Shown: in pieces, positions 1 through 31,624 of the stretch
How positions within the stretch are numbered: the first letter of the stretch is position 1
Layout: each line of letters begins with the position of its first letter
The notes under the pieces: generated by a model
What the model was told of the DNA's origin: nothing
The model's database searches: none
What the model saw: only the letters and a program-made list of their open reading frames with translations
Source: Candidatus Eiseniibacteriota bacterium
GTDB taxonomy: Bacteria > Eisenbacteria > RBG-16-71-46 > JABDJR01 > JAWXBZ01
Assembly: GCA_034440375.1 (NCBI GenBank)
Contig: JAWXBZ010000067.1
Coordinates: 1-51,848, forward strand
DNA length: 51,848 nucleotides
Direction of reading: 5' to 3'
Program-made: the position numbers and the translations under genes

Positions 1-2341
1 CCCGCCCCTGGTCGTTCCCCTGTTTGGCAGTGATCCGCGGGCGCTCGCGATCAATGCCGCCGGCAACCGTGTCTATGCCTCCATATTCGAATCAGGGAAC
101 CGGACGAGCATTCTCACGACCGCCGAAGTCGGCGCGGGTGGTGGTCCGCCTCCTCCGGGTCCACCACGGAACCCGAGCCTTCCACCCGCGCCCGCCGTCG
201 GCCTCGTGATCCTGTGGAACGGACTGAACTGGGTGGATGAAACCGGCACCCGGGCATGGCAGACCCTGGTGTCGATTCCCTACACGCTGCCGGACAACGA
301 CCTGATTGAGCTGGACGCAAATATCACCATGCCGACCCCGCGCTATCTGACCGGCGTGGGCACGTTGAACTACAACCTGACGGTCCACCCGGTCACGGGA
401 GTGGTCTACGTGCCGAATTTCGAGGCCTTTAACATCAGCCGATTCGAGCCAAACCTGCGCGGGCGATTCGGAGACTACCGGATCACCCGGATCGATCCGG
501 CCGGCGCGGGAACGGTGACCCCGGTGAGCCTGAACCCGCATATCAATCGCACCGTCACTCCCGGACCCCCTTCGGAAATTGCCCTGTCGCTCTCGCAGGC
601 CAACGGTGGCGATTGGGACGCCGCCGGGAACAACCTCTACCTGGCGGCAATCGGCTCTGGAGCCCTGGCGATCCTGAACAGCGCCGGGCAGGTAACAGCC
701 CGGATCGCAGTCGGCGACGGGCCGACGGCTGCCGAAGTCGACGACGCGCGGAACCGCGTCTACGTAATGAATCGATTCTCGAACCGCGTGGCCATCGTCA
801 GCACGGTGAGTCAGGCCGTCGTGGGCGAGGTGTCGCTCGGCTATCAACCGGAACCGCCGGCCGTGACCAACGGACGTCGATTCCTCTATGACGCTCGCCA
901 GAGCTCCGGCCACGGCGACCTGGCCTGCGCCTCGTGTCATGCGTTTGGCACACTCGATGGGCTGGCCTGGGACCTCGGGGACCCCACGGGGACCGAGAGC
1001 CCGGCGCCACCTGGATTTCCCCCCTTCCATCCGATGAAAGGGCCGATGAGCACGCAGTCACTCCGGGGACTGGCCTCCACGGAACCCTTTCACTGGCGCG
1101 GTGATCGGGCCGATTTCACCCGATTCAATCCGGCGTTCGTTTCGCTCATGGGCCTGGCTGACACGCTCGCCACGCCCGACATGCAGGCCTACACCGACTA
1201 CATCATGACGATAGCCTACCCGCCGAACCCAAATCAGAATCTCGATCGAACGCTTCCAAATCCTCCGCCACCCACGGGCAGTCCCGAACGGGGCCGGATC
1301 CAGTTCACCACCGTGCCACATGACGGCCCACTGCGCTGCCAGACATGCCATAACAGCGCTCCACTGAATCAGCCGTTCCTCGTGTCGCCGGGAACCAACG
1401 GCCTCCTGATCCCCGGCCCGGCACTTCAGGAAAGCCAGGCGTTCAAGGTGCCGCAGCTCCGGAACATGTACGAGAAGCGCGGATTCATGGACGCAGCCGG
1501 TCCGCAGAAGCAGGGATTCGGCTTCCTTCACGACGGCTCCATCGACAACCTGTTCAACTTCCTTCTGGCCCCGGTCTTTCAGTTCGCCAACAATCAGGAA
1601 CGTCTCGACATGGAGGCGTTCATGCATGCCTTCGACACCGGGATGGCGCCGGGGGTGGGCCTGCAACAGACCGTCGACGGAACGAACCGGAATTTCGGCC
1701 CCGTCATCGCTCGCCTCAACCTCCTGATGGCCCGGGCGGATGCCGGCGACATCGATCTCGTCGTGAAAGGGCGCTCGAACGGAGAATCGCGTGGCTGGCT
1801 ATATTCTGGTGGGGGGATGTACCAGTCCGATGGGTTGTCGGAGCCACTGATCTCCGAAGCCGACCTCCGAGGCGGCGCTACCGCCGGCTCCGAGCGAACC
1901 TGGACCGGCGTTCCGCCCGGCAACGGATCCCGGATCGGTATCGATCGCGATTCCGATACGTACGGGGACCGGCATGAGCTGCAGGCCGGATCAGATCCGG
2001 CGGATCCGAATTCGATCCCCTCTGCCAGCGGGTTGGGCGAGCCGGGTGAGGGCAACCTGGCGGATCGCATGGCCCTGACCGCGACGCCGAACCCGGCGAA
2101 CCGCCTTGGCACGACGATTTCATTCACCCTGGCTGATGCCGCGCCCGTCTCGTTGGAAATCTACGATCCAGGAGGACGACTGGTCCGCCGCTTGATGGAG
2201 AACGAGCGCCAGCAGGGAACGGTGACGGTGCACTGGGATGGCCGCGACCAGGCCGCACAGCTCGTGGCCGGTGGAGTCTATTTCTACCGGCTCTCGGCAG
2301 GCGCGGCCACCCGGACGCGGAAAGTCGTCGTGAGCCGCTGA
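1..2341 (+). CDS. Secreted YVTN/YncE beta-propeller + di-heme cytochrome c peroxidase/MauG-like domain + FlgD-Ig/T9SS-like C-terminal domain (5' partial)
   Basis: The frame of ORF 206..2341 stays open back to position 2 (PPLVVPLFGSDPRALAINAAGNRVYASIFESGN...), so the start lies outside the window. YVTN-like repeats (RIAVGDGPTAAEVD..NRVYVMNRFSNRVAIV), two CxxCH motifs (CASCH, CQTCH), CCP-like motifs (TQSLRGL..PFHWRGDR, FKVPQLRN) and a C-terminal PNP..IYDPGGRLVRRL..WDGRD..GVYFYRL. Confidence 0.8.
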   Translation, partial: PPLVVPLFGSDPRALAINAAGNRVYASIFESGNRTSILTTAEVGAGGGPPPPGPPRNPSLPPAPAVGLVILWNGLNWVDETGTRAWQTLVSIPYTLPDNDLIELDANITMPTPRYLTGVGTLNYNLTVHPVTGVVYVPNFEAFNISRFEPNLRGRFGDYRITRIDPAGAGTVTPVSLNPHINRTVTPGPPSEIALSLSQANGGDWDAAGNNLYLAAIGSGALAILNSAGQVTARIAVGDGPTAAEVDDARNRVYVMNRFSNRVAIVSTVSQAVVGEVSLGYQPEPPAVTNGRRFLYDARQSSGHGDLACASCHAFGTLDGLAWDLGDPTGTESPAPPGFPPFHPMKGPMSTQSLRGLASTEPFHWRGDRADFTRFNPAFVSLMGLADTLATPDMQAYTDYIMTIAYPPNPNQNLDRTLPNPPPPTGSPERGRIQFTTVPHDGPLRCQTCHNSAPLNQPFLVSPGTNGLLIPGPALQESQAFKVPQLRNMYEKRGFMDAAGPQKQGFGFLHDGSIDNLFNFLLAPVFQFANNQERLDMEAFMHAFDTGMAPGVGLQQTVDGTNRNFGPVIARLNLLMARADAGDIDLVVKGRSNGESRGWLYSGGGMYQSDGLSEPLISEADLRGGATAGSERTWTGVPPGNGSRIGIDRDSDTYGDRHELQAGSDPADPNSIPSASGLGEPGEGNLADRMALTATPNPANRLGTTISFTLADAAPVSLEIYDPGGRLVRRLMENERQQGTVTVHWDGRDQAAQLVAGGVYFYRLSAGAATRTRKVVVSR

Positions 2342-2383
2342 CGCAGGCTCAATGCCTCGTGTGAAAGGCGCGTTCGTGCGGGA

Positions 2384-3349
2384 TCAGCCGCCGGTGCGCA
2401 CCTTTTCCCTGAGAGCCTTGATCTCGGCGTCGAAGAGTGCGATTCGTGTCTGAAGATCAGCTTCGTGAGGAAGGTTCGGCGTCAGGTCCTCGAAGACGGC
2501 CGTGGCCGCGGTGACGGCCCGATCGGCAACGGTGAGCTCGAGACGCGAGACCAGCTGACCCCGCTGGCCGGTTCTCATGACCCAAGAGTCGGCGTAACGT
2601 TCACCGTCGTAGCCGGATCCGGGAACATGCCCCACCACCAGGACGTCGATTCCAGGGACCGATTCGGCCAGATGCCTTGCTTCAGGCGGTGCCATGTGGG
2701 CCAGAACGACGACCACGTCACAGCTCTTCGAAAGCGATGCCACGATCGGTGTCAGTGTACGGACCGGATCGGCCAGCTCCCATATGGCCGCGGCATCGTC
2801 GCCCGCCACGCCGGCCTCCTTGCCGGAAAGGAGAACCTCCGGCCCGGTGACGCCGGTGATGCCCACCTTGATGCCACCGATGTTTCGGATCAACTTCTCT
2901 TTGAAGAGGCGTTTGCCGTCAATCCGGATGTTGGCGGAAACGGCCGGTACCCCGAAATCCGACACCAGCGTCTTCAGCCGCAGTGGCCCCTGGAGGAGTT
3001 CCCGTTCCCCGGGGGTCCAGGCATCGCAACCTATTTCGCCCAGCGTCTTCGCCGCGTACGAGGTGACCTTCCACCCTCCGGGCACCCGCGGATTGTCCAG
3101 CTGACCAAAGTCACCGGCGTCGACCGTCAGGACCGCCGGGTTTGCCGCCCGAATCTTCTTATAAACGCTGGCCCGCCGGGCCAACCCGCCAGCCTGATGC
3201 GCTCACCCGCACGGTGACAACTCGCCCCAGATCGAACTCGAAGCCATGATGATGAGCGGCTTCGGCGCGCCGGGTGAGCCACCACAACCAAGGGGGGCGA
3301 GAAGGAGGGCCGACAGGGCGAATCTCGAGAATTTGGTCAGCGGATTCAT
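2384..3349 (-). CDS. UshA/5'-nucleotidase-fold putative selenoprotein (C47-G-U49), exported, possibly a lipoprotein; 321 aa
   Basis: Manual translation upstream of ORF 2384..3184: ATG at 3349 gives MNPLTKFSRFALSALLLAPLGCGG...IMASSSIWGELSPCG-TGA(3205..3203)-AHQAGGLARRASVYKKIR...DAGDF, all in frame. Hydrophobic signal with a lipobox-like LGC; SECIS-like hairpin after the TGA; paralog of the upstream gene. No clear RBS. Confidence 0.85.
3167..3185 (-). promoter_or_regulatory. Putative bacterial SECIS element for the TGA at 3205..3203
   Basis: mRNA GUUGGCCC-GGC-GGGCCAGC forms an 8-bp stem with a G-initiated loop starting 25 nt after the UGA, fitting bacterial SECIS geometry. Confidence 0.65.
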
Positions 3350-3376
3350 CGCAAACGATGATAGCGCATCTGCGGA

Positions 3377-4783
3377 TTACCGGTGATGCAGCCCCGCCGC
3401 GATGGCCTTCTGGAAGCTGAAATCGGGGTCGTTGGCCTTGTCGTGGCAGGTGATGCAGGCTTCCTCGGTGACCTTGGTGACCATGCCGGGGCTGCCGTGC
3501 AGCGTGCCCTTGCCGTGACAGGACTCGCACTGGACGTTTCGCATTTCGACGGCGTCGGTCGTGTCGGGCTTGCCCGCGGCGTTGGTGCGGTACACCAGGG
3601 TCTGGTAGCCTGTCGGATCGCCCCAGCCGGTCACGTGGCACGAAATGCAGGAACGATCCGTCTGCTTGTTTGCCGACACCAGAGTCTGGAAGGCGGCGGC
3701 GTGGGGCCCCTTGGCCCATTGGGTGTAGATATCGGAGTGGCAGCGGGCGCAGACGTCGGTTCCGAGATACTTGTCCTTGCCGCCATTGATGCCTGAATTG
3801 ACTATCGCCTTCTTCCGTGCCTCATCGGCTTCTGTCTTGGCCATGCCGTCGAGAAACTTCTGTATTTCATTTCCGACGCCGGCATCGATCGGATAGCTCT
3901 CGTTCAAGGCATCGGCCGATCCCTTGTAGTCGATGATCTTCCTTGAGGCGTCGAAGGTGAGAGCCAGCTTGGCGGCGTACTGTCCCCGATCGCCGGACCG
4001 CATGATGACGACGTCGCCCACCCGATCGGGGCTTGGCATGTAGCCGGGACGATGGCCGGCGATGATGGCATCGATGCCCGGCACTTCCTCGGCGAGCCGC
4101 CGGGCATCACCGGCGCCCAGGTGGGCCAGGACGATGACGGCGTCCGTCTCTTTTTCCAGGGCCGACACGATCGGCTTCAGGCTCTCGATTGGATCGAGGA
4201 ACTGGTAGTCCTTGGCGCCGAGATTGTTCTGGACGGGCATGCCTTCAAAGATGGTCTTCGAAGTGACCCCGGTGATGCCGACCTTGAGGCCACCGATCGT
4301 CTTGATCACGCGGTCCTTGAAAATCGGCTTGCCGGTGGCGTCCATGAGGTTGGCGGAAACGGCATCGCAGGCCATGACTTCCGCAAACTTGGCGAGGTTT
4401 GCGATCCCGTAATACAACTCGGTCTCGCCCGGCGTCCAGGCGTCGTATTTGAGGCGAGCGAGACCAGCGGCCATGAAGAGGCTGGTCTCCAGTCCGCCGA
4501 CCGCACCGGGCGGCTTCTGAATACCGAAGTCGCCGGCATCCACGACGAGGACGTAGGGATTTTCCTGTCGAATCCGCTGATAAAAACCCGCCCTCCGGGC
4601 GAGCCCGCCTAGCTGATTCTTGTGTCACCCACAGGGGGCGAGCTCGCCGTTTTGGGACGACGTGCTCAAAATGACGAGCTCCGTCGTATTCCCCTGGCTG
4701 AAAGCGTGCCGGGAACCGATCCCGACCGCCAACGCCAACCCGGCGAGGGCCACCACGAGTGCCAGAAGACGCGAACGCGTCAT
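3377..4783 (-). CDS. UshA/5'-nucleotidase-fold putative selenoprotein (C51-G-U53) fused to a C-terminal tetraheme cytochrome c (c554-like); 468 aa
   Basis: ATG at 4783 with GGAGG RBS gives MTRSRLLALVVALAGLALAVGIG..AFSQ (signal peptide)...STSSQNGELAPCG-TGA(4627..4625)-HKNQLGGLARRAGFYQRIR...VDAGDF, in frame with ORF 3377..4543. Four CxxCH motifs: CARCH, CISCH, CESCH, CITCH. Confidence 0.88.
4571..4618 (-). promoter_or_regulatory. Putative bacterial SECIS element for the TGA at 4627..4625
   Basis: mRNA upper stem GGCUCGCCC-GGA-GGGCGGGUU with a G-initiated loop 28 nt after the UGA, plus a lower stem AAUCAGCU/AGCGGAUU. Confidence 0.7.
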
Positions 4784-4845
4784 GACATCCTCCGGTAAAT
4801 AGTTGACTGGATTACAGTTACGCCAAGAACTTCAAGCGCCGTGGC

Positions 4846-4875
4846 AGTATAGCGAAACGGGTCGTGATGGCGCAA
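4846..4875 (-). promoter_or_regulatory. Putative sigma70 promoter of the selenoprotein pair
   Basis: TTGCGC-18 nt-TATACT on the minus strand, about 60 nt upstream of ATG 4783. Confidence 0.45.
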
Positions 4876-4936
4876 GGCCTTTCACGAATGGAGCTTAGGC
4901 CCCCACGAACCCGGTTGTCCTTCCGGAGTTCCCGTC

Positions 4937-7900
4937 CTAGAAAGCACCACCGGGTGAGACCCGTGAGAGAATATCGGACGTTCCCAGCCCCGGCCCACTT
5001 TCCAATTTCAGCTCTGGAAGAGCTTTCACGCTGATTCGAAAATAGAACTCGGATATCCCGGGCGTGGCACTGTAGGAGAAGGCCGCCTGCCAGCAGTGAA
5101 GATCACGGGTCAATTCAAGCCGCTGATACGTCAGGCCTTTCGTGTCGAATGAGTAGGCGTTGGCATAACGCATCCCCCAGTTTTTCGAGAGCTGAAGGTC
5201 GAGGCTGCCATCCAGATTGGCCGTCTCGTCGATCGACGCCGAAGCAGCCCGAGAGCCTGACCAGGAGAATCCGAAGTTGGCCCGCCAGGTCAGCGATTCC
5301 TTTCCCTCTTCATCCAGCCGATCGGTCCCCTTGTAGACATTCGACTGGCGATCGTAGCCCGGTTCGGCCGGCGTGGCCGATTGAATCCCGTCCTCATCCG
5401 ACGCGGGATCAGCCACCTCCTCCCAACCGCTCGCCCCCTGCTCGATCCGGGATCCGGGCAGGCGGCCGGCCAGACCGAGGCTGCTTCGAAAATTGAAGCT
5501 TTGAAACCGAAACTGGTTGTACGGATCGTGGACCGAGTTGAAATTCAGGGTCATCAATTTGATCTGATTCAGATCAAGGAAACTCGATATGTTGCTGGCG
5601 GGGCGGGAGGCACCGTTTCGTGCGGCGAGGAGGTCGTACGTTCCGTTCAACCGCCAGCCAAACAGGTTGACCCGTTTCAACTCGTCACCGGAACGGATCT
5701 TGGCCTGAAATCGGTTTTCGAGCCCGTAACTGATGGTCTGCGCGCGAGCGGCACTGACGCCCGGAAAGCGGTTTTGCGAGACCGTGTCACTATCGACGTA
5801 TCGAAGATTGGGGAAGTCCGGATTGTATGTCAGGGTCACCGACGGGGTGACCGTGTGGCGCAGCGACTCGAGACCGAACAGGTGGGGAGACACGGTGCCG
5901 TAGCCGGTGAAGCTGGTGCGCAATCCCAGTGTCCAGGTGGCGGCGCGGCGAAAGCCCATGAGCGTGTCGGTAGGGGTGAACTCGCGATCAACCCAGAATT
6001 CACTGAGACTCAACTGCGGTCCGAACGTCAGGAACCCAAAAAACTTCCGATTATCGACCGCCGACAGGCGCCAGACACCAGACCGATTGGTTTGACGATC
6101 CACGCTGAATGAGGTGTCGGCAGCCGTGGAATCGGTTTCTGCCCGAATGGACCGGGCCTCCCGCTCGGTCCGACGAAGTTGACCGTTGAAGTTGATGCCG
6201 TAGGTGATGTCCTTGGCCCACGGCAGGAAAGCCGGTCGGCCGACGACCGCTTCCCTCCCCACCGCCCTCGGCTGACGGGTCAGGCTCAGGCTCGGCAAGG
6301 TTTCGTCCAGCAGGAGATCGCGGTCACCGTCGGTCAGGTCCGGATCCAATGCCTTGTCCACCGAGGCGTTCAGCGCCATGGAAATTTGTGCACCGGGCCA
6401 GTTCTTGGTAAAGCCGGCCACGGATCGGACCCGATTGTCGACGCGGCTGCCAATTCCCTGGCCAAGGCCGCGAACCTGGCGGTAGTTCGGATCCTCGAAT
6501 TCCAGGCGGCCGGTGAGTCGCCCACCCTCCCCGACATTCTGGTTGTGCCGGAGCTGAAACTGGTTGATCCCCGACTCGAGGCCGAAGACATGTCCCAGGT
6601 CGATCCGACCGTCCAGCAGTCCACGCCGGGCATAGGTCGCGGTCACCTCACCGATGAACGCGCCCGGATTCTCGTAATAGGCCGTGCGGAAAATGAAATC
6701 GCTGTAGTCATTGGCCGCCCAGTAGTAGCCGAGATTCTCGAAGAATCGATCGCCGCCCGAGGTCAGGCCGAATTCCAGGCGGGGCAGAAGCAACCCCGAG
6801 TGCCGCCCTTTCTTCAACGAGAAGACGTAAAACGGCAGGATCAGAACCGGGATCCGCCCGAGGTACAGGGTGACCGGCCGGGCCACGACCTTGTCGCCCA
6901 GGTAAACTTTCATGCGCCGACTGGTGAAGTGGTAGTGCGGCTCGAGCTCCTTTCCGACCAGATCGCAGGTGGTGTAGCGGCCGGAGCCCACGTTCAGTTC
7001 CGTGTCGGTGACTTTGCGCAGGCTGTCGGCGAAGAGAAAACCCTGATCGTACTGGGTACGGCCGTGATAGATGGTGCCCCGCGACGATTTCATGTCGTAG
7101 GTGACCTCGCGCCCGACCACCTCCTGATCACCTGGTCGAGAGCGGTCAATCAACACGGGCCGCGGCTGGGCCGACAGCTCCTCCTTCTCGGCATCGAAAT
7201 CGATCTCGTCGGCCTTGAGTGTCATGGTTCCGTAGCGGGTCTCTCCACTCCCTCGCAGCTGGATCAACCGTTCCTCGATCCGGAACAGGATCCGATCGGC
7301 GGAATAGTCCACCCGATCGAGCGAGTCGGATGAGGCCTGGCCGCGGTAGAGATAACGACCGGCGGCGCCGCCGGCCAGGCGGACTTCATCGATCTTGTTG
7401 CTGGCAATGCTGATGCGGATCGTGTCGGCACCGGCCTCGACGCGACCGGTGCCGCGGGCCGAGTCGGAGCTGGACGGTGTGTATTCGATCGTTGGTTGGC
7501 CGAGCGCTGTAAGGCCCTCAATCTCCCCGGCCTTGAACTCGACAATCAGGCTGTCGCCGGTGATCAGGCTTCGCTCGCCCAGGAGGTCGAGTTCGATCGG
7601 TCGTCGGTCGAGCCGGGCATGCCCGATCATGACCGCCCGATCGAGACGGGACTCCTCGAATCGGATCAGGAGTGAGTCGCCGGTGACCACGCCGTCCCCA
7701 TCGGCCACGCGGGGCGATCCGAAAAACCAGGCGAGTCCGGCGTCGTCCAGGAAGAGCGCGCTGTCCGCCGTGACCGTCTGTCGCTCCTCGGTGACGACAA
7801 CGGAACCGGCCGCCTCAAGGCTCTTTCCGCTCTCGTCGAGACGAAGACGGTCTCCCTTGATCGACATCGGCTTTTCCTGTCCACGCGACCATTCGAGAAG

Positions 7901-8521
7901 CGGCTCGCCGGTCGCCACCGCCACGCCGGTTGAATCCCAGTCGAGTCGTTGGCCGGTCAGGACGATGCCGCGTTCCGGATCCTCGAACCGGGCCCGCCCG
8001 GTCAGGGCGTAACGACCGGCCGCGCGATCCCATGCGAGGCGCTCGCCGCTCCAGATGCGATCACCGTCCCGGCCGGTGACGCCCCCGTCCAACTCGAGGC
8101 GGTTCCGATCGCGGTCATAGGAGCCGTGCGCCCCTTCGAGGTGGAGCCCCGCCTCATCAATGGTGACGTGGCCGAAGGCTTCGAGGCGCGCCGGGGCACG
8201 ATCATAGGTTGCGGAATCGGCTGTCACGGTCATGGTCAAGTCGACCAGCCGGACGCCGCCCCCCATGGCCGTCCGGTTCTCGCCGGCGCTGTAGTAACCT
8301 CGGGGCGCGGTGACAGCCAGGCTCCCCTGGGTGACGCGGACATCGAGGAGGAGGTGTCGAAGCCCGCCCGCATCCGGGAGGGCGAGCATCTCTCGCGCCT
8401 CGAGATTGAACCCGCCGGACGGATCGAGAAGTGGCAGCACCGGGGCCGCCGCGGCGGGCACCACAAGGCTGGCCAGGGCCGCGAGTCCGGCCAGGAAGGG
8501 GAGGAAGATAGAACGCGTCAT
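4937..8521 (-). CDS. lptD: LPS assembly protein LptD with an extended N-terminal LptA/OstA-like repeat region (about 1194 aa)
   Basis: Signal peptide MTRSIFLPFLAGLAALASLVVPAAAA from ATG 8521. OstA-type repeats (xADSxxY/F, GxPxx), YTTCD..PHYHF..KVVARPVTLY..PVLILPF..RHSGLLLP, and C-terminal RDLHCWQ typical of FCB-type LptD. Confidence 0.8.
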   Translation of the reverse strand: MTRSIFLPFLAGLAALASLVVPAAAAPVLPLLDPSGGFNLEAREMLALPDAGGLRHLLLDVRVTQGSLAVTAPRGYYSAGENRTAMGGGVRLVDLTMTVTADSATYDRAPARLEAFGHVTIDEAGLHLEGAHGSYDRDRNRLELDGGVTGRDGDRIWSGERLAWDRAAGRYALTGRARFEDPERGIVLTGQRLDWDSTGVAVATGEPLLEWSRGQEKPMSIKGDRLRLDESGKSLEAAGSVVVTEERQTVTADSALFLDDAGLAWFFGSPRVADGDGVVTGDSLLIRFEESRLDRAVMIGHARLDRRPIELDLLGERSLITGDSLIVEFKAGEIEGLTALGQPTIEYTPSSSDSARGTGRVEAGADTIRISIASNKIDEVRLAGGAAGRYLYRGQASSDSLDRVDYSADRILFRIEERLIQLRGSGETRYGTMTLKADEIDFDAEKEELSAQPRPVLIDRSRPGDQEVVGREVTYDMKSSRGTIYHGRTQYDQGFLFADSLRKVTDTELNVGSGRYTTCDLVGKELEPHYHFTSRRMKVYLGDKVVARPVTLYLGRIPVLILPFYVFSLKKGRHSGLLLPRLEFGLTSGGDRFFENLGYYWAANDYSDFIFRTAYYENPGAFIGEVTATYARRGLLDGRIDLGHVFGLESGINQFQLRHNQNVGEGGRLTGRLEFEDPNYRQVRGLGQGIGSRVDNRVRSVAGFTKNWPGAQISMALNASVDKALDPDLTDGDRDLLLDETLPSLSLTRQPRAVGREAVVGRPAFLPWAKDITYGINFNGQLRRTEREARSIRAETDSTAADTSFSVDRQTNRSGVWRLSAVDNRKFFGFLTFGPQLSLSEFWVDREFTPTDTLMGFRRAATWTLGLRTSFTGYGTVSPHLFGLESLRHTVTPSVTLTYNPDFPNLRYVDSDTVSQNRFPGVSAARAQTISYGLENRFQAKIRSGDELKRVNLFGWRLNGTYDLLAARNGASRPASNISSFLDLNQIKLMTLNFNSVHDPYNQFRFQSFNFRSSLGLAGRLPGSRIEQGASGWEEVADPASDEDGIQSATPAEPGYDRQSNVYKGTDRLDEEGKESLTWRANFGFSWSGSRAASASIDETANLDGSLDLQLSKNWGMRYANAYSFDTKGLTYQRLELTRDLHCWQAAFSYSATPGISEFYFRISVKALPELKLESGPGLGTSDILSRVSPGGAF

Positions 8522-8546
8522 CGTGATCGACCGGGGCCGGGCGGCG

Positions 8547-9500
8547 TCAACCGAATCGCGTGTCGTCACGACCGGCCACCAGGGCGGCGCCGACAATTCC
8601 GGCTTCGGAACCGAAATGGGCCGGCCGGATCGGGACCGGGTGCTGGCGGGCCACCATCGAGCGTTCCATCAGTGCCTGCCCGGCCGCCGGAACAATCCAG
8701 GCATGAGCCCCGGCAATACCGCCGCCAAGAACGATGAGTCGGGGCTCGAGCAGGTTGACCAGACCCGCGAGGCCCGCGCCGAGGCGGCGCCCGATCTCCG
8801 CGTAGAGGTCACGGGCGCGCTGGTCGCCCGCCTCGGCGCGCTCAAAGACACGTTTCGGATTGTCGGCTCCCTCGGCAGCGAGGCCCATGTCGACCGCGAG
8901 CTGTTCGATCGCGCCCTGGGCGACGAACCGTTCGAGGCAGCCGCGGTTCCCGCACGGGCAGGCCGGCCCATCATGGTCGATCGTCATGTGTCCCAGCTCT
9001 CCGCCCTGGCCGGTTGGTCCGCGATACGGGCGGCCACCCAGGATGAGCCCACCCCCGACGCCGGTGCCCAGTGTGAGGACAAGCGCGTCATCGACCCCGC
9101 GCGCGGCGCCGGCCAGCCACTCGGCGGCCAGAAACGCCGAAGCATCATTGATGAGGCGCACCCGGACGGGCAACCGCGCGGCCAGTTCGTCGCGAATCGG
9201 CACATCGTGCCAGCTCGGCAGATTGGGCGAGGTTCGGAGAATACCGCGGGCGCCGTCGACAAGACCGGCGCACCCGATGCCGAGCCCCGCCAGTTCTTCA
9301 ATTCGCAATCCTGCCGCATCGACGCGTTCGCGGATCGCCAGGGCGATCTGCGCAATGACCCGGCCGGGGTCGGCCGTGGCGTGGTCCCTGAGGACGGTCA
9401 CCGGGCCGTTTGTCGCGCCGTCGTCCAGCCGCACCAGGCCGATCTTGAGGCCGGTACCGCCGATGTCGATGCCGGCGGCGGTGGCCGGCGCCCCCGTCAG
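8547..9500 (-). CDS. ROK family sugar kinase (glucokinase-like)
   Basis: GIDIGGT, NDA, LTLGTGVGGG, GELGH and CPCGNRGCLE motifs. Start is uncertain: CTG 9500 with a GGAG RBS is preferred over GTG 9596. Confidence 0.9.
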   Translation of the reverse strand: MTGAPATAAGIDIGGTGLKIGLVRLDDGATNGPVTVLRDHATADPGRVIAQIALAIRERVDAAGLRIEELAGLGIGCAGLVDGARGILRTSPNLPSWHDVPIRDELAARLPVRVRLINDASAFLAAEWLAGAARGVDDALVLTLGTGVGGGLILGGRPYRGPTGQGGELGHMTIDHDGPACPCGNRGCLERFVAQGAIEQLAVDMGLAAEGADNPKRVFERAEAGDQRARDLYAEIGRRLGAGLAGLVNLLEPRLIVLGGGIAGAHAWIVPAAGQALMERSMVARQHPVPIRPAHFGSEAGIVGAALVAGRDDTRFG

Positions 9501-15831: not shown

Positions 15832-18800
15832 TCACCGAACGAACAGCATCCGCTCCGTCCGGCTGAAGGCGCCGGCGGTCAGCCGATAGAAGTAGACACC
15901 CGACGGGAGTGCCTGGACCCGCTCGCCCCCGGTCGTTGGAACTCCGACCCCGAAATCAACGGCGTAGCGCCCGGCCTCCTGCTCCCGATTGACCAGCGTG
16001 GCCACGCGACGGCCGCTCAGGTCGAAGACGTCGAGATTGACGGACGCCCTCTCCGGCAGGTCGTACTCGATGCGCGTCGTTCCGGTGAAGGGATTCGGCC
16101 GATTCTGTCGTAGCGCCGCGACGGCAGGTGCAGGTCGCGCGTCGAATGCACCAGATTGATACAAACCGATGCCGACCAGCGCGATGGAATGAGGTGCGAA
16201 CGGGTCGTTGCTGACCAAGGTCAATGTCCCCGCTTCGTTTTGCAGGCTGTCCGGATCGAAGCAGATGGTCAGCGTATCGGACGAGGCCGGTTGAATTGTC
16301 AGGCTGGACCGAACCGGGCTGAAACGATCGGAATCTGACGTGATCGAGGAGATCACCAGCGGCGCGGACCCGTTGTTGTCCAGCGTGATGACAACGCAGG
16401 ACGGTGTCTCGATGGAGACCACGCCGAAATCAACCGAGTCCGGTTCGTTGGCGAGGAGCGGCGCCGTGATGGCGAACTCCGCATCGGACGTGTCGAGAAT
16501 CGGTCCGCCCGTCTCGCGTACGCGGACGCGGGCCGTCGTGGTTGGCGTGTACGGCACGATCCAGTTGTAGCTGCCGGAAACGGCCGGAACCGCCGTGTCG
16601 ATCGGCAACCAACCGCCGCCGGGAGAGGTTTCGTAGTCGATATCCACGTTCGTGATGGTGGTACTAGACCAGGTGATCGGGTGGTTGGTGTTGTACTCCC
16701 ACGCCTCGCCGCCATCCGGAATCAGGACGGCCACTCCAGGCGCCGCCTGGCCGATGCCGGTCAGCGGCACGCGATGCGGCGAATCGGGTGCATTGCTGGT
16801 GATGATCAGCGTGTCGGGATAGCTCCCCGGGGCGCCGGGCGTGAAGGTGACGCCGACCGTGTCGGTGTCCGCCACCGCCACGGAAAAGCTTGTGCGGCCC
16901 GGGAGATAGGCTCCCGAAGTCGTGGTGACGTTCGAGATAATCAACGGCGCGGTGCCGGTGGATTTGATTTCAACCGGCAGCAGGGTGCTCGTCCCGATGG
17001 TGCGGGTTGCGAAATCGAGTCCCGCGGTCAGCAGTTGCGCCCGCGGGGCGGCAATGGTGAAGAAGCTGTTCGACGAATCGACCGGCGCGCCATCCCATGC
17101 ATCGACGATCCGGATCTTGGCCTGGGTCGTGGCGTCGTTGGGTACGGTCCAGTTGAAGGCGTTGACGTAGCCGGTCTGCGTTCCGATCACCTGCCACGGC
17201 TGTCCGGGCGCCCGACGGTATTCTAGACGGGCCAGTGCCACGTTCGTGGCCGTGGTGCTGATGACCCGGTTCTCTCCGGCGGCCCAGACCTCGCCCCCGT
17301 TCGGAGCCAGGACGAGGCATGACTGGTTGCTGGCGGGCGTGTAGGTATACGAGGTGGCCAGCTTGTAGACGCCGCCTCCCTGTTCGGTCAGAACCGTGTT
17401 CCGGTCGGGCATGAACACGGAGTAGTTCGAGCCCGGATTGGCGATAGTCGTGAAGGTGAGCCCCTCGTCGAACGACAGGTAGAGCAGCCCGCCCGAATAA
17501 ACGCCGTAAGCCATGCAGTTCGGATCGTCCTTGGCCGAATCCACTCCCCACGCGGAACCGGTGGTGGCCACGCTCGGCCAGGACGCGCCGGCGTCCTTGG
17601 TGCGGCGAACCCCCCCCGATCCCCAGTGGGTGGCCCAGCCAACGCCCACGTCGAGTCGTGTGGCGGCAATCATGGGGATTTCCGATCCGCTGGTCGTGTA
17701 GTTGAGGGCAAAGGTGGCGCCACCGTTGGTTGAAACGAACATCTGGCCCTGGCCCGAGCTGGTGATGCCATCGCCCACCCAGATCGTGTTGGGCAGGTCG
17801 GGAAGGATCTGGATGTCACATGGGCTGCGAAAGCTCGGCTGGTTGGAAAGGAGCGTGAAGGTGGCGCCGAAATCGTTGGACTGCCAGAGCTTCGCGTCCT
17901 CCGCCCCCAGTATCAGGTGGTTGGGATCGTTGACATCCATCTCCAATGGCACGCCATACTCGGTGAACGGAATCGTTGTGCCGGGCACGTCCGCCCAGGT
18001 GATGCCCCCGTTGGTGGAGCGAGCAATTCGGTCTGATGCGCCGACAGCGGCCACCATCAACATCGAGTCGGCCGGGTGCACGTAAAAGGCATTGGTCTTG
18101 CTTGGCGAGCCGAGCACGGTCGTGATCGTGCCGATCTGCGCCCAGGTGTCGCCGCGGTTGAACGATTTGTAGACCCGCGCCCCGAGGACGCAGTAGAAAG
18201 AGTTCTTGTTCTGGCCGTTCTGGGCGAGCGAGCTGCCGCGGACGGTTCCGGCCACGAGTGGCTGCACCAGGTTCAAGGCCCGCGAGACACCGGTGCCGCC
18301 GGGCGGACTCCAGTTCACGCCGCCATCGGTGGAACGGAGAACGATCCGATTGCTGCGATTGCAGGCCCAGGCCTTGGTGCCGACGACCAGGACATCGGCC
18401 ATTTCGCCCTGGATGGTGTGCTGATGGAACGACCACGAGGTTCCGCCGTCGATCGAGCTGCGCACGAAACCGCCGCCGCCGACCAGAATCACATGGGTGG
18501 CGGAGAGGAGGTGAACGCCGTTGATATCCGACTTGGAATCGAACTTCATGTTCTGAGCGGTCCAGACCGTGCCGCCATCCGTGCTTTTCAGCGCGGTGGC
18601 GTCCTTGCCGCCCGCCCAGAGGACCGGGTTGACCGCGCCGATGGTCGTGGCATCGACCGTGTAAAGATCCTTCGTCGTGCCGGAAGTCAGGGGTGTCCAG
18701 TTGGACCCGCCATCGATGGTCTTCAGGATGGTGCCACCGTTACCGACGACCCAGCCCGTCTGGTCATCCAGAAATTTCAGCGCATTGAGCCGAACCGCCA

Positions 18801-19251
18801 CGCCGCTGGTTTGCGGGGTCCAGTTGATACCGCCATCGGTGGATTTCAGGATGGTGCCGGATGCACCGACGACCCAGCCGATCGAGGCGTTGACGAGCTG
18901 AACACCGCGAAGTTGCGGGGAGCCGGCAACCGTGGCGGTACTCCACGTGCCGCCCGAGTCAGTGGAGCGATGGATCTTGCCGTTGTCCGAGACGAGCAGG
19001 TCGGTCCAGACATTGGTGGCCACGCCGCGGTGGGTATCCGCGCCGAGAGTCTTGCTGGTCCAGGTCAGGCCACCATCGAACGAGCGATAGTAGGCGCCAC
19101 TTCCCCCGACAGCCCAGACATCAATTCCGTCCGGGCTGTAGAGGGCGTGAAAACCATTCTGAGCCCATGCGGCGGGTGCCGAAAGGAAGAGCCCTCCGAG
19201 TGCAAGACCAACGAGGGCTGGAAAAATTCGACCTGGTAACCAACGCGACAT
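15832..19251 (-). CDS. Secreted YCF48/BNR (Asp-box) beta-propeller protein with Ig-like/ASH domains and a FlgD/T9SS-like C-terminal domain
   Basis: Signal peptide; many S/TxDGGxxW Asp-box repeats; two PNGGE/PDGGE Ig-like modules alternating with ASH-like modules (GTAPLIISNV, GSAPLVISSI); C-terminal QNRPNPF..VFDLSGRRVATL..SGVYFYRL. Confidence 0.85.
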   Translation of the reverse strand: MSRWLPGRIFPALVGLALGGLFLSAPAAWAQNGFHALYSPDGIDVWAVGGSGAYYRSFDGGLTWTSKTLGADTHRGVATNVWTDLLVSDNGKIHRSTDSGGTWSTATVAGSPQLRGVQLVNASIGWVVGASGTILKSTDGGINWTPQTSGVAVRLNALKFLDDQTGWVVGNGGTILKTIDGGSNWTPLTSGTTKDLYTVDATTIGAVNPVLWAGGKDATALKSTDGGTVWTAQNMKFDSKSDINGVHLLSATHVILVGGGGFVRSSIDGGTSWSFHQHTIQGEMADVLVVGTKAWACNRSNRIVLRSTDGGVNWSPPGGTGVSRALNLVQPLVAGTVRGSSLAQNGQNKNSFYCVLGARVYKSFNRGDTWAQIGTITTVLGSPSKTNAFYVHPADSMLMVAAVGASDRIARSTNGGITWADVPGTTIPFTEYGVPLEMDVNDPNHLILGAEDAKLWQSNDFGATFTLLSNQPSFRSPCDIQILPDLPNTIWVGDGITSSGQGQMFVSTNGGATFALNYTTSGSEIPMIAATRLDVGVGWATHWGSGGVRRTKDAGASWPSVATTGSAWGVDSAKDDPNCMAYGVYSGGLLYLSFDEGLTFTTIANPGSNYSVFMPDRNTVLTEQGGGVYKLATSYTYTPASNQSCLVLAPNGGEVWAAGENRVISTTATNVALARLEYRRAPGQPWQVIGTQTGYVNAFNWTVPNDATTQAKIRIVDAWDGAPVDSSNSFFTIAAPRAQLLTAGLDFATRTIGTSTLLPVEIKSTGTAPLIISNVTTTSGAYLPGRTSFSVAVADTDTVGVTFTPGAPGSYPDTLIITSNAPDSPHRVPLTGIGQAAPGVAVLIPDGGEAWEYNTNHPITWSSTTITNVDIDYETSPGGGWLPIDTAVPAVSGSYNWIVPYTPTTTARVRVRETGGPILDTSDAEFAITAPLLANEPDSVDFGVVSIETPSCVVITLDNNGSAPLVISSITSDSDRFSPVRSSLTIQPASSDTLTICFDPDSLQNEAGTLTLVSNDPFAPHSIALVGIGLYQSGAFDARPAPAVAALRQNRPNPFTGTTRIEYDLPERASVNLDVFDLSGRRVATLVNREQEAGRYAVDFGVGVPTTGGERVQALPSGVYFYRLTAGAFSRTERMLFVR

Positions 19252-24126: not shown

Positions 24127-25398
24127 TCAGCCTCCCAGTTCCCGGAGCCCGCCGAGGTACGGTACGAGGACTTCCGGCACGCGCACGCGGCCGTCCGCGG
24201 TTTGATAGTTCTCGATGATGGCGATCAGGATCCGCGGCAACGCCAGGCCCGACGCGTTGAGCGTATGAACGAATTCCGGTTTGGCACCCGGCTCGGGCCG
24301 GTAGCGCATCTTCAGACGCCGCGCCTGGAAGGCCTCGAAATTGCTGCATGACGACACCTCGAGCCAGCGATCGGCCCCCGACGCATACACCTCGAGGTCG
24401 TAGCACTTGGCGGCAGCGAACGACGTATCGCCGCTGGCGAGAAGGAGCACCCGGTACGGCAGGTCAAGCCGCTGGAGAATGTCCTCGGCGTCGGCCAGGA
24501 GCTTTTCGTGTTCGTCATACGAAGCTTCGGGCGTCGTAATGCGGACCATCTCCACCTTCATGAACTGGTGAACCCGGGTCAGTCCTTTCGTGTCACGGCC
24601 GTACGAGCCGGCCTCGCGCCGAAAGCAGGGGCTGAAGCCGACATGCCGAATCGGAAGAAGAGCGGCGTCGAGTATCTCCTCGCGGTAAAGATTGGTGATC
24701 GACACCTCGGCGGTCGGGATCAGAAAGAGATCGTCGGTCGTCCGATACATGTCATCTTCCAACTTCGGGAGTTGCCCGGTACCGAAGAGCGATTCGCGCC
24801 GCACCAGAAAGGGGGCGGCCACCTCGGTATGGCCATGCTCCAGCGTGTGGACATCCAGGAAAAAATTGATCAAGGCGCGCTCCAGCTTTGCCCCCAGTCC
24901 CTTGAGGACGGGAAATCCGGGGCCACTCATGCGCGTCCCCCTTGGCATGTCGATCCAGTCGAGGCGCGCCCCAAGCTCTTCATGGGGAACGATCGGAAAG
25001 TCGAAACGGCGCGGCTCCTTCCAGGTCTTCACGATCGTGTTGTGGGCGGCGTCACCGACCGGAACCGAAGCGTGGGCCAGGTTCGGCAACCAGTGAAGTG
25101 CGGTCTCCGCCGCGGCAAGGGCCGGCCCCAGGGCCTCCTCCGCCAACTTGAGTCGATCACCCAGCGCCTTCACTTCGGCCTGCAGCGTCGCGGCATCCTC
25201 CCCGGCCTTTCGCCGCCGGCCAACCTCGAGAGATTCCTTCGTCCGCTCGGCGCGAAGGGTCTCGACTTCGGAAAGCAGGCGCCGGTAGGCCACGTCCGCT
25301 TCGAGGAATTGATCGAGATGGAACGGGTCGCCGTTGCGGGCCAGGATGGCCTCGCGCAATCCGGGCGGGTTCGTTCGAAGATATCGAGCGTCGAGCAC
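24127..25398 (-). CDS. serS: Serine--tRNA ligase
   Basis: GTG 25398 (MLDARYLR) with GGAG RBS; GTGQLPK, LIPTAEV, CFRREAGSYG..RVHQFMKVEM, EVSSCSN, HTLNASGLA. Confidence 0.97.
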   Translation of the reverse strand: MLDARYLRTNPPGLREAILARNGDPFHLDQFLEADVAYRRLLSEVETLRAERTKESLEVGRRRKAGEDAATLQAEVKALGDRLKLAEEALGPALAAAETALHWLPNLAHASVPVGDAAHNTIVKTWKEPRRFDFPIVPHEELGARLDWIDMPRGTRMSGPGFPVLKGLGAKLERALINFFLDVHTLEHGHTEVAAPFLVRRESLFGTGQLPKLEDDMYRTTDDLFLIPTAEVSITNLYREEILDAALLPIRHVGFSPCFRREAGSYGRDTKGLTRVHQFMKVEMVRITTPEASYDEHEKLLADAEDILQRLDLPYRVLLLASGDTSFAAAKCYDLEVYASGADRWLEVSSCSNFEAFQARRLKMRYRPEPGAKPEFVHTLNASGLALPRILIAIIENYQTADGRVRVPEVLVPYLGGLRELGG

Positions 25399-25467
25399 GC
25401 GTCCACTCCAAATGGCAGTCCGGGTCAATCCGTCCAGGGGCGATTCGAATGCGGGAAGTTTAGCAGG

Positions 25468-26460
25468 TCATCGCAGGATTCGCAGAAGGGAGGGAGCCGC
25501 ATAGGTGATCACCAGATCGGCACCGGCGCGGACCAGGCAGGTGGTGGCCTCCACGAACAGCCTCTCTTCGGCCGCGGCATCGCCGGCGGCCAGTGACTTC
25601 AACATCACGTACTCGCCGCTGACGTTGTATGCGGCGATCGGCACATGGAACGAGTCCTTCGCGCGTCGGATGATGTCGAGGTAGGGCAGACCGGGCTTCA
25701 CCATGACGATGTCGGCCCCTTCGTCGATGTCGAGCGCGATTTCGCGGAGCGCCTCATCGGAATTGGCCGGATCCATCTGATAGGGGCGGCGATCACCGAA
25801 GCTCGGCGTGGAATCGGCCGCGAGGCGGAACGGACCGTAGAACGCCGAGGCGTACTTGGCCGAATAGGCCATGATCGGACTGTCGGCATGCCCGGCAACA
25901 TCCAGGGCCTCGCGCAAAGCGCCGATCCGCCCGTCCATCATGTCGCTCGGCGCCACCATGTCGGCCCCGGCCGCCACGTGGGAAACGGCCGTGCGCGCCA
26001 GCAGTTCCAGTGTCGGATCGTTATCGACGGTGCGCTCCCCTCCCCGGTTCGCCGGCGTCAGCACCCCGCAATGTCCATGGTCGGTGTATTCGCACAGGCA
26101 GACATCGGTGATGACTTCGAGGTCGAGGTTTGCCGACCGGATCGCCCGGCAGGCGCGCTGGACAATACCATCCTCGGTCCAGGCTCCTGACCCCGTGGCA
26201 TCCTTCACCTCGGGAAGGCCGAACAGAAGGATCGAGCGAAGCCCAAGTTCCTCCACCGCGCAGCGGCAATCGTCGACCAGCCGGTCGACGGAGTGGTGAT
26301 GCACGCCGGGAAACCCCGCGATCTCCGTCTTCACGCCCGTTCCGGGCACGGCAAAGACCGGCCAGATGAGCTGGTCCCTGTGCGGACGCGTTTCGGTCAC
26401 CATGGCGCGCCGCCGCGCCGAACCGCGCAGACGGCGGGGTCGTTCCTCGGGGAAAGGCAT
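25468..26460 (-). CDS. hemB: Porphobilinogen synthase
   Basis: RPRRLR, DVCLCEYTDHGHCG, APSDMMDGR, YSAKYASAFYGPFR, YQMDPAN, MVKPG, YNVSGEY. Confidence 0.97.
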   Translation of the reverse strand: MPFPEERPRRLRGSARRRAMVTETRPHRDQLIWPVFAVPGTGVKTEIAGFPGVHHHSVDRLVDDCRCAVEELGLRSILLFGLPEVKDATGSGAWTEDGIVQRACRAIRSANLDLEVITDVCLCEYTDHGHCGVLTPANRGGERTVDNDPTLELLARTAVSHVAAGADMVAPSDMMDGRIGALREALDVAGHADSPIMAYSAKYASAFYGPFRLAADSTPSFGDRRPYQMDPANSDEALREIALDIDEGADIVMVKPGLPYLDIIRRAKDSFHVPIAAYNVSGEYVMLKSLAAGDAAAEERLFVEATTCLVRAGADLVITYAAPSLLRILR

Positions 26461-26463
26461 CGG

Positions 26464-29317: not shown

Positions 29318-29325
29318 CGCTTGGT

Positions 29326-30411: not shown

Positions 30412-30581
30412 CCTGGATCCCCCTGATCGGAGCATGTCTTCGTGGCCGATTGCCACGGATTGCATGCGGGGCCTTTGACGACGTGACGAACAGATTCATC
30501 GGCCCGAAGGCCGGATCGTTTATCAAATTCCGTCGTCTGTGGCCCTCCGCGAATCCCGTAAGTCCTTCAAAATTCAAGGGG

Positions 30582-30611
30582 AACGTACGAGAGGCCCGAA
30601 AAGGATGTCAA
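30582..30611 (-). promoter_or_regulatory. Putative sigma70 promoter for the epimerase-wecA-hem operon
   Basis: TTGACA-18 nt-TACGTT on the minus strand. Confidence 0.5.
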
Positions 30612-30642
30612 GGGGCTACTCTCCAGAACCGGTCGGACCGCC

Positions 30643-30671
30643 TTGTCTCGGTCCTCCTCCAAGTATATAAC
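30643..30671 (+). promoter_or_regulatory. Putative sigma70 promoter for the polysaccharide operon
   Basis: TTGTCT-17 nt-TATAAC, about 60 nt upstream of GTG 30731; back-to-back with the minus-strand promoter. Confidence 0.5.
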
Positions 30672-30730
30672 GTGGCCTGCCGGATGACATCCGGACCTTT
30701 AATTTCATCGAACCAGCCAAGGAGCATCAA

Positions 30731-31534: not shown

Positions 31535-31624
31535 CCGTGGACGACCCCGCGTACTTGACCACCAGGAGCGTGATGTCGTCTCCCTGCGGCTCCTCCCCGC
31601 GCCACTGCCGATCCGGATGATCCG

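Follow-up and report, generated by a model that had tools for sequence, protein, structure and literature searches.

Tandem genes for probable UshA-like Cys-Gly-Sec selenoproteins, one fused to a tetraheme cytochrome domain, in a Candidatus Eiseniibacteriota bacterium

UshA-like proteins with a Cys-x-Sec (CxU) motif, assigned to COG0737, have been catalogued as selenoproteins since 2008, when they were listed in the survey by Zhang & Gladyshev (PMC2398784). The same family, represented by the NCBIfam model NF041198 ('UshA-like (seleno)protein', UshA_like_PCGU), is covered by two reviews (PMC9312934 and PMC13188914). A literature search on the family returned catalogue listings alone and no experiment on any member. 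NF041198-type proteins are nonetheless widespread and multi-copy: they match 149 of the 151 genomes searched in the phylum considered here, and they also occur in Krumholzibacteriota, Acidobacteriota, Nitrospirota, Desulfobacterota-type and other metagenome-assembled genomes.

The window analysed here, a stretch of 51,848 nucleotides from a Candidatus Eiseniibacteriota bacterium, contains two adjacent genes of this kind, designated gene A and gene B. A preliminary description of the pair had pointed to UshA-like CxU proteins from selenoproteome surveys, a link that agrees with the published catalogue entries (PMC2398784) and with NF041198; it had also presented the pair as hidden, a claim to novelty that is not supported, as an existing model already describes the family and its fusion to a tetraheme domain. 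Positions 346–519 of the NF041198 profile constitute its cytochrome part, and positions 349–519 match gene A at 3410–3931. Scored with Cys in place of Sec, gene A reaches 277.1 bits, barely over the trusted cut-off of 275, and gene B scores 125.2 bits, under that cut-off. Gene A is a member of the catalogued family, in which fusion to a tetraheme domain is the usual architecture.

Gene A (3377..4783, minus strand) runs from an ATG at 4783 to a TAA ending at 3377 and, with TGA translated as U, encodes an exported UshA-like (seleno)protein of 468 aa. A signal peptide leads into a degenerate domain of the 5'-nucleotidase type that carries C51-G52-U53; this is followed by a long linker helix (residues 301–332) and then by a c554-like tetraheme domain. 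The N terminus, MTRSRLLALVVALAGLALAVGIGSRHAFS, is signal-peptide-like, and residues 1–26 are disordered (pLDDT < 50) in an AlphaFold2 model with a mean pLDDT of 84.5 and a pTM of 0.78. The tetraheme domain (residues about 341–468; 3380..3763, minus strand) is defined by a match to Pfam Cytochrome_C554 (PF13435; 3.3e-11, 44.4 bits against a cut-off of 20.8) and by four CxxCH motifs, located on the minus strand at 3751–3737, 3649–3635, 3529–3515 and 3457–3443 and beginning at C345, C379, C419 and C443. In an alignment of 47 sequences of the family, made up of gene A as query and 46 hand-picked diverse members, the four CxxCH motifs are invariant, as are H361 and H429, and 43 of the sequences have H466.

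Gene B (2384..3349, minus strand) is a heme-less paralogue of 321 aa (TGA again translated as U) that shares 43% identity with gene A. Its ATG, at 3349, lies 27 nt past the gene A stop, the two genes being co-directional on the minus strand, and its terminal TGA occupies 2386–2384. It has the same degenerate domain as gene A, with C47-G48-U49, and ends past the linker-helix region; its translation contains no CxxCH motif and gives no Pfam match. The N terminus, MNPLTKFSRFALSALLLAPLG-C, is lipobox-like, with a Pro at position -3 that we take to be a departure from the usual lipobox. The translations thus contain what the preliminary description had reported, an upstream gene with four CxxCH motifs and a downstream heme-less paralogue with a lipobox-like signal. 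The two genes are probably co-transcribed. A promoter scan found no promoter-like site, and a terminator scan found four terminator-like sites, against 2.0 expected; one of them consists of the gene A SECIS stem and the five U after it, and we attach no meaning to this result.

Similar pairs recur elsewhere, with heme-less copies adjoining a tetraheme copy at the related loci L133, L135, L136, L140, L051, L077 and L083. In a quick tree (SH-aLRT support only), the heme-less tandem copies cluster with their own neighbours, and gene B is taken to be a lineage-specific heme-less duplicate. Gene conversion between neighbours could mimic the repeated duplication seen in this tree.

In standard (table 11) translation both genes begin past an in-frame TGA, as ORFs of 388 aa and 266 aa, the truncation that the preliminary description had noticed. 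The TGA of gene A (4625..4627, minus strand; read as Sec53) stands in the context ...GELAPCG-U-HKNQLGGLARR and that of gene B (3203..3205, minus strand; read as Sec49) in the context ...GELSPCG-U-AHQAGGLARR. Each is the sole internal in-frame TGA of its gene, and both fall in one alignment column. Most database members of the family are called in the same truncated manner, at about 83% coverage. Taken as table 11 reads the DNA, the TGAs would be true stops, leaving two short leader ORFs followed by two N-terminally truncated genes, or else decaying pseudogenes. This we regard as scarcely credible. A gene A product shortened in this way would lack a signal peptide in spite of its four c-type heme motifs; since the hemes of gene A need export and the sole signal peptide lies upstream of the TGA, the arrangement supports read-through. 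The frame 5' of the TGA is conserved across phyla, and the N-terminal extensions postulated earlier are conserved across the related loci.

The codon usage at this position argues in the same direction. Among 81 aligned copies, drawn from 77 of 80 related loci in several phyla, the Sec column holds TGA in 66 and a Cys codon (TGC or TGT) in 15, with no other codon. Cys, the residue that the preliminary description had proposed to look for in homologues at the TGA position, also occupies this column in 16 of the 18 database homologues that are full-length. The other 2 have Val and no Cys pair, which implies that some members function without the motif or are inactive.

A hairpin after each TGA had been proposed as well, and folding identifies both. 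The SECIS-like hairpin of gene A (4584..4606, minus strand) has a 10-bp stem with a GGA loop starting 28 nt past the UGA and overlies the codons for G-L-A-R-R-A, with a folding energy of -23.4 kcal/mol (z = -2.5). Its counterpart in gene B (3167..3185, minus strand), identified by folding together with family conservation, has an 8-bp stem with a GGC loop starting 25 nt past the UGA; the 74-nt stretch around it is unexceptional when taken alone (z = -0.75), and the element itself is conserved in 66 homologous loci. In both hairpins the loop begins with GG, at a distance of 25–28 nt from the UGA. Synonymous sites in the hairpin covary. Over 68 sequences, 83.6% of hairpin cells are paired, against 30–54% with slid partners, and both sides have changed in 52 cells, compared with 19.4 in shuffles, none of 500 shuffles reaching 52. 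The pair that joins the third positions of the Leu and Ala codons illustrates this, occurring as GC 30 times, CG 14, UG 6, GU 4, UA 3 and AU once. An Rfam scan of 2000–5200 gave chance-level matches only, no curated family fitting the SECIS.

The genome also encodes the selenocysteine machinery, on whose presence the preliminary description had made its interpretation depend beforehand: selA (582 bits), selB (332 bits), selD (337 bits, with a further fragment where a contig ends) and tRNA-Sec (selC, at C64:225-322). Genome-wide reassignment of TGA was rejected, as TGA is the ordinary stop of gene B and of a neighbouring 779-aa ORF ending at 2341. Assembly error at the two TGAs was likewise rejected on the agreement of independent contigs. 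Independent metagenome contigs (X4, X6 and X7) keep the gene A TGA although the Gly codon next to it differs synonymously at 4628, and the gene B TGA is preserved in contigs from runs X4, X5, X6 and X7. Of the variant places listed inside genes A and B, 10 of 15 are at third codon positions, and two of the five others are near a contig end; strain variants that keep the TGA and change mostly third positions speak further against true stops. Both TGAs are best read as selenocysteine, as had been suggested at the outset, a reading well supported by the distribution of 66 TGA and 15 Cys codons and by the covarying hairpin.

With respect to fold, a comparison made on gene A alone shows its model to resemble the 5'-nucleotidases: Foldseek matches to CD73, UshA and 2z1a (1ush and 4h1s among the structures) have E-values of about 1e-23 (range 2e-24 to 1e-21), with alignments of about 310 columns and an r.m.s.d. 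of about 3 Å. This resemblance in fold and sequence, together with the label '2',3'-cyclic-nucleotide 2'-phosphodiesterase (5'-nucleotidase family)' carried by some homologues, would be expected if the proteins were still nucleotidases or phosphodiesterases. The active-site motifs make such an activity extremely unlikely. The D-x-H of motif I is lost, with S43 and N45 in gene A, and its His is absent from 47 of 47 family sequences; motif III, GNH(E/D), reads G-E-T-E in gene A and so lacks the Asn-His; and no His is found among the eight commonest residues at the catalytic-His column of the 47 sequences. In addition, the nucleotide-binding C-terminal domain of 5'-nucleotidases (PF02872) has no Pfam match in either protein, being replaced by hemes in gene A and absent from gene B. 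The phosphoesterase metal site is dismantled and the residues for phosphoester hydrolysis are lost, so that the chemistry is likely to be that of a Cys/Sec redox couple connected to hemes.

The CGU loop directly follows the first β-strand, in place of the DxH of the first metal site. It belongs to a P-C-G-U motif near the mature N terminus, with the forms APCGU (gene A) and SPCGU (gene B). Of 47 family sequences, 46 have C51, and equal numbers have G52 and C/U53; the Cys-x-Sec motif is the family's most conserved feature. The position of the loop also admits a different role for it. Four residues that correspond to the second metal site of phosphoesterases, D85, E120, H221 and H244 (gene A numbering), persist in the gene A subfamily and are kept in both gene A and gene B, and the Cys/Sec pair could join them as a metal ligand, so that the chemistry would take place at a new centre, either with a single metal or mixed (Fe, Ni, Cu or Zn, for instance), that is fed by the hemes. 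We consider this rather unlikely. The four residues are found in 28, 28, 27 and 27 of 47 family sequences, far from invariant when compared with 46 of 47 for C-G-C/U, and a family-wide metal site is improbable on that account.

The heme domain raises a further alternative. Its four CxxCH motifs are accompanied by three conserved extra His (H361, H429 and H466), which leaves one heme without a conserved His partner, and Sec53 or Cys51 might serve as the sixth ligand of one c554-like heme, in the manner of Cys in SoxA, TsdA and DsrJ, with catalysis taking place at the Sec/Cys-ligated heme. In cytochrome c554, one heme is naturally five-coordinate and has no His partner, so the His count is explained without a Sec ligand. 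Moreover, the motif is retained where there are no hemes at all, in gene B and in further paralogues of its kind, and we hold ligation of this kind to be very improbable.

Taken as a whole, the data lead us to favour, with reasonable confidence, the reading that genes A and B encode genuine selenoproteins of the UshA-like Cys-Gly-Sec family that function in heme-coupled thiol/selenol oxidoreduction. Both proteins are predicted to be exported, and each is built on a 5'-nucleotidase-type (calcineurin-like) fold. The Cys/Sec pair would alternate between a selenenylsulfide and a reduced state, and that of gene A would trade electrons with periplasmic carriers through the four hemes; by such cycling and exchange the enzyme would act as a heme-coupled thiol/selenol oxidoreductase. 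Candidate substrates are thiols and disulfides as well as compounds of sulfur or selenium. Gene B has no hemes, so the heme wire cannot belong to its own mechanism, and it may act as a partner or shuttle of gene A. A two-subunit module of the kind proposed in the preliminary description would be in keeping with the tandem position of the genes, 27 nt apart, and with the recurrence of heme-less tandem copies in relatives.

The gene directly upstream is lptD, both in this window and in 25 of 80 related loci. The immediate neighbours in the window, lptD upstream and a convergent cytochrome-peroxidase-like gene, supply no redox partner. At 3 of the 80 loci (L056, L069 and L120) the gene does have a redox context, being flanked by a NapH/MauN-type ferredoxin gene and, on its opposite side, by DUF1573/OS_HP2-type, rhodanese and MauE/DoxX genes. 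Neighbour clusters c4, c5, c9, c10, c12 and c13 of the related loci gave no Pfam or NCBIfam match; some of these, as well as c1, c18 and c21, may be antisense ORFs produced by a simple ORF caller in G+C-rich DNA. With regard to genes for thiol oxidation, DsbB was found in none of the 151 phylum genomes searched and VKOR in only 29 of them; in the present genome, which is 93.7% complete, a search for DsbB, VKOR and DsbA (Pfam) found none of the three.

A more specific role for the heme-coupled oxidoreductase can be imagined, in which the family would serve to oxidise (or reduce) thiols outside the cytoplasm in these phyla, where DsbB seems to be lacking. Gene B would be a DsbA-like shuttle acting on envelope proteins and recycled by gene A through exchange between their identical Cys-Gly-Sec motifs, the electrons would go on from gene A to the respiratory chain, and the position behind lptD would reflect a role in outer-membrane biogenesis. 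The searches that found no DsbB and little VKOR, the presence of the family in 149 of 151 genomes, the lptD gene upstream in 25 of 80 loci and the recurrent heme-less tandem copies are compatible with this scheme, which we advance as a speculation with little chance of being right.

In practical terms, the analysis corrects the annotation of two exported proteins that standard gene calling truncates and that are here read as full-length selenoproteins. It also draws attention to a very common, multi-copy, heme-linked Cys/Sec family that is still without an assigned function, and for which the recurrent pairs of tetraheme and heme-less genes and the conserved place behind lptD offer handles for experiments. 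A heme-wired thiol oxidoreductase, if that is what these proteins are, would represent a new coupling of periplasmic thiol chemistry to respiration.

Among described systems, the 5'-nucleotidases UshA and CD73 have in common with gene A the N-terminal fold, the linker helix and the GGxARR and DAGD motifs; gene A differs from them in its SxN and GETE sequences, in the added Cys-Gly-Sec loop and in the lack of a nucleotidase C-terminal domain. The SoxB thiosulfohydrolase (TIGR04486) belongs to the same fold superfamily, is periplasmic and acts on cysteine-bound sulfur species, but it needs an intact two-manganese site, which is lost in gene A; against TIGR04486, gene A gives a weak match of 74 bits and gene B one of 51 bits, far below the cut-off of 550 bits, and no sox genes occur near the pair. 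The cytochrome c554 family (PF13435) resembles gene A in having four CxxCH motifs and three conserved extra His, whereas in gene A this unit is the C-terminal module of a larger protein, with no link to hydroxylamine oxidation seen. Like gene B, members of 'UshA-like (seleno)protein family 2' (NF049981) are heme-less, UshA-like and have Sec near the N terminus; gene A (42.5 bits) and gene B (33.4 bits) score under the cut-off of 140 for that model, and the motif spacing differs, being CxU in genes A and B and CxxU in NF049981 (PMC13188914). The closest counterpart of both genes is the NF041198 family. Gene B shares its motif and domain and, lacking the heme region, stands as a truncated-architecture paralogue outside the trusted cut-off, whereas gene A has all of its features: the P-C-G-U motif, the UshA-like N-terminal domain, the C-terminal four-heme region and the alternation of Sec and Cys.

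Genes A and B lie in tandem on the minus strand, jointly spanning positions 2384–4783, and each extends through a single in-frame TGA, read here as selenocysteine (Sec), to an upstream ATG. Gene A encodes 468 residues (4783, ATG, to 3377, end of TAA) with its read-through codon U53 at 4627–4625; gene B, which starts 27 nt beyond gene A, encodes 321 residues (3349, ATG, to the TGA stop at 2386–2384) with its internal TGA (residue 49) at 3205–3203. Translation bears out much of the preliminary description: the motif contexts GELAPCG-U-HKNQLGGLARR (gene A) and GELSPCG-U-AHQAGGLARR (gene B), four CxxCH motifs in gene A (C345, C379, C419 and C443) and none in gene B, hydrophobic, signal-like N termini in both, and truncated ORF calls, as translation table 11 recovers only the post-TGA parts (388 and 266 aa, respectively). 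The signal of gene B ends in LAPLG-C and is lipobox-like as described, with a proline at −3 that departs from the usual lipobox pattern.

Five agreeing lines of evidence argue strongly that both TGAs encode selenocysteine. Cysteine occupies the Sec column in 16 of 18 full-length database homologues, the exceptions (P0022 and P0069) having valine there and lacking the first cysteine as well. Among 80 related loci from named metagenome-assembled genomes (MAGs; Eisenbacteria, Krumholzibacteriota, Acidobacteriota, Nitrospirota, Sumerlaeota, Desulfobacterota-type and others), 77 provided 81 copies in which the codon is TGA (66), TGC (11) or TGT (4) and never another; in the other three the aligned part stops short of the motif or there is no match at E 1e-5. 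The window's own genome, 93.7% complete, encodes selA, selB, selD and tRNA-Sec. Its selD is in two pieces at contig ends (G000:C122:58742–59509 and C66:7641–7898), with the N-terminal part, which itself carries Sec or Cys in many bacteria, on a separate contig. TGA is also an ordinary stop here, terminating gene B and the adjoining 779-aa ORF. Read-through is supported, too, by the export that the gene A heme domain requires, as the sole signal peptide is encoded ahead of the TGA. Both TGAs are unchanged in contigs from four independent metagenome runs, where strain variation includes a silent substitution in the Gly codon adjoining Sec53 (4628) and a third-position change at 4673, upstream of the gene A TGA; of the 15 variant places listed within both genes, 10 fall at third codon positions, and two of the remaining five are near a contig end.

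The hairpin described after each TGA is likewise present, lying over the L-A-R-R-A codons with a GGA or GGC loop 25–28 nt downstream of the TGA. Across 68 sequences (two from the window and 66 from the loci), 83.6% of hairpin cells pair, compared with 30–54% when partners are slid by 1–3 columns. Double-sided changes occur in 52 cells against 19.4 ± 3.2 in shuffles, with 0 of 500 shuffles reaching 52, counts that overstate independence because the sequences are related by descent. The third bases of the Leu and Ala codons pair as GC (30), CG (14), UG (6), GU (4), UA (3) and AU (1), with 9 unpaired, and such covariation of synonymous sites points to RNA structure. In a simple scan the gene A SECIS stem (4586–4600, minus strand), followed by five U, appears terminator-like; the U run is absent from most homologues.

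Gene A matches the NCBIfam 'UshA-like (seleno)protein' family NF041198 (model UshA_like_PCGU) with 277.1 bits at a cut-off of 275. Profile positions 346–519 match the heme part, so that the tetraheme fusion is the normal architecture of the family rather than a peculiarity of the locus. The preliminary description placed UshA-like CxU proteins in selenoproteome surveys, and a 2008 ocean-sampling selenoproteome does list 'COG0737, UshA-like, CxU' with 76 sequences (PMC2398784); the family is also present in review tables (PMC9312934 and PMC13188914). The available parts of these three sources state no function for it, and a literature search for NF041198 or for metallophosphoesterase-tetraheme-selenocysteine proteins returned nothing further. 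The 'hidden' pair is thus no novelty: the locus adds one further member, together with a duplicate lacking hemes, to a selenoprotein family already catalogued (NF041198; PMC2398784) and without assigned function. In the window's phylum, NF041198 exceeds its cut-off in 46 of 151 genomes and has matches (E ≤ 1e-20) in 149, an upper figure because certain weaker matches are confined to c554-like domains within larger proteins; this tally and those for DsbB and VKOR include one unpublished genome (G015), on which nothing else stated here depends. Most N-terminal-domain matches among those listed have one TGA each. The window's own genome holds further matches without an internal stop at C155:15246–16523 (minus strand), C42:11059–11982 (plus strand) and C180:12661–13278 (minus strand); at least the first, which belongs to a 538-aa open frame, contains both N-terminal domain and heme region, and is therefore a Cys-form paralogue.

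Gene B scores 125.2 bits against NF041198, below the cut-off, has the motif and the domain without hemes or any Pfam match, and stops at roughly the point where gene A's linker helix does. Heme-less relatives with signal peptides occur in Cys form (P0024, 332 aa; P0025, 328 aa). In L133, L135, L136 and L140, four loci from the sister family within the same order, a heme-less Cys copy lies directly upstream of a tetraheme Sec gene, and in L051, L077 and L083 a heme-less copy also adjoins a tetraheme Sec copy, both neighbours carrying TGA in the latter two. In a quick maximum-likelihood tree of 72 hand-picked rows, with SH-aLRT support only and a heme count unreliable for three rows cut by locus ends, gene B clusters with gene A and the gene A orthologue of the sole same-family genome (support 98), and the remaining heme-less copies cluster with the copies beside them. 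The pattern fits local duplication that recurred and was accompanied by loss of the heme domain, or else gene conversion among adjacent copies. No gene B orthologue is found among the two matches of the closest genome (G006).

The Cys/Sec pair would be the active site, cycling via a selenenylsulfide, and the four c-type heme sites of gene A would relay electrons, in one direction or the other, between it and periplasmic carriers; obvious candidates for the substrate are thiols or disulfides, or compounds of sulfur or selenium. Gene context backs this mechanism weakly. In 3 of 80 loci (L056:5714–9332, L069:5947–10257 and L120:5359–9771) the UshA-like Sec gene is part of a cluster of five genes, in the order DUF1573/OS_HP2-(seleno)protein-like gene (SCDCT motif), membrane-anchored rhodanese, MauE/DoxX, UshA-like gene and NapH/MauN-type ferredoxin, which looks like a membrane-linked thiol or sulfur redox module. 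A CCG/4Fe-4S (HdrD/GlpC-like) gene is near the UshA-like gene in 6 loci; the window holds no redox partner of the rhodanese, ferredoxin or CCG kind. A search of 151 genomes of the phylum found DsbB (PF02600) in none and VKOR in 29, and the window's own genome, at 93.7% completeness, has no Pfam match to DsbB, VKOR or DSBA. As many anaerobes share this absence, it only keeps open a broader reading, an improbable one, in which the family would be the extracytoplasmic thiol-oxidising or -reducing machinery of these DsbB-less phyla.

Directly upstream of gene A lies an LptD-like gene (4937–8596, minus strand; 1219 aa; Pfam LptD_2, 3.4e-49, and LptD_N), followed by a ROK kinase gene. The lptD-then-UshA-like order is also seen in 25 of the 80 related loci (L051, L053, L056, L057, L059, L060, L062, L065, L066, L068, L070, L077, L082–L084, L103, L107, L108, L111, L112, L114, L120, L123, L127 and L128), in Eisenbacteria, Krumholzibacteriota and Fibrobacter-labelled MAGs and across at least two candidate phyla, often within a longer housekeeping run (accD, folC-like, ROK, lptD); in four further loci a simple ORF caller places an antisense ORF of ~1,200 aa there. 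The adjacency may be inherited gene order only. Convergent on gene B is the 779-aa ORF (2–2341, plus strand, 5′-open), with two CxxCH motifs (CASCH and CQTCH), a weak match, under the Pfam cut-off, to di-heme cytochrome c peroxidase (CCP_MauG) and, at its C terminus, a FlgD_ig domain such as T9SS-sorted proteins carry. Elsewhere in the window are a BNR/sortilin-repeat protein of 1139 aa with a C-terminal DUF1573 Ig-like domain (15835–19251, minus strand), an ordinary housekeeping run of seryl-tRNA synthetase, hemB, hemD and hemC (ALAD, HEM4 and porphobilinogen deaminase; 24130–28229, minus strand), noted as Ser-tRNA and heme both feed the two proteins, and, within 28229–43858, a ~15-kb polysaccharide biosynthesis cluster (glycosyltransferases, Wzz, a Wzy-like gene, flippase and deacetylases).

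AlphaFold2, given a 47-sequence alignment and no hemes for the heme domain, models gene A (mean pLDDT 84.5, pTM 0.78) as an alpha/beta domain, a long helix (301–332) and a small helical C-terminal domain; pLDDT exceeds 95 over most of residues 31–300, is 77 around the CGU loop and is lower in the heme domain. The latter matches Pfam Cytochrome_C554 (3.3e-11), and in the 47-sequence sample its four CxxCH motifs are invariant, with only three further conserved histidines (H361, H429 and H466). A Sec- or Cys-ligated heme might be considered on that count, and is very improbable; the heme-less copies share the Cys/Sec motif. Residues ~30–340 superpose on CD73, the Thermus 5′-nucleotidase (2z1a) and Escherichia coli UshA over the N-terminal domain and linker of each (Foldseek E 2e-24 to 1e-21, ~310 columns, r.m.s.d. 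~3 Å). In the sequence alignment with 2z1a, the motif I Asp and His become S43 and N45, DAGD is retained, GNHE becomes GETE, and H221 and H244 align with the two later His ligands. Residual nucleotidase activity, which the fold might suggest, is scarcely credible: the motif I position lacks His in all 47 sampled sequences, the motif III Asn and His positions are mostly E/P and R/N, and neither gene has the Pfam 5′-nucleotidase C-terminal domain. A new metal centre built on the remnant ligands is unlikely, D85, H221 and H244 being kept in only 28, 27 and 27 of the 47. In the sample, 46 of the 47 sequences retain C51, 46 retain G52 and 46 retain C/U53; all retain G59. Gene A is an exported protein that keeps the phosphoesterase fold but has its hydrolytic metal site dismantled, the first metal motif being replaced by an almost invariant Cys-Gly-Sec/Cys loop.
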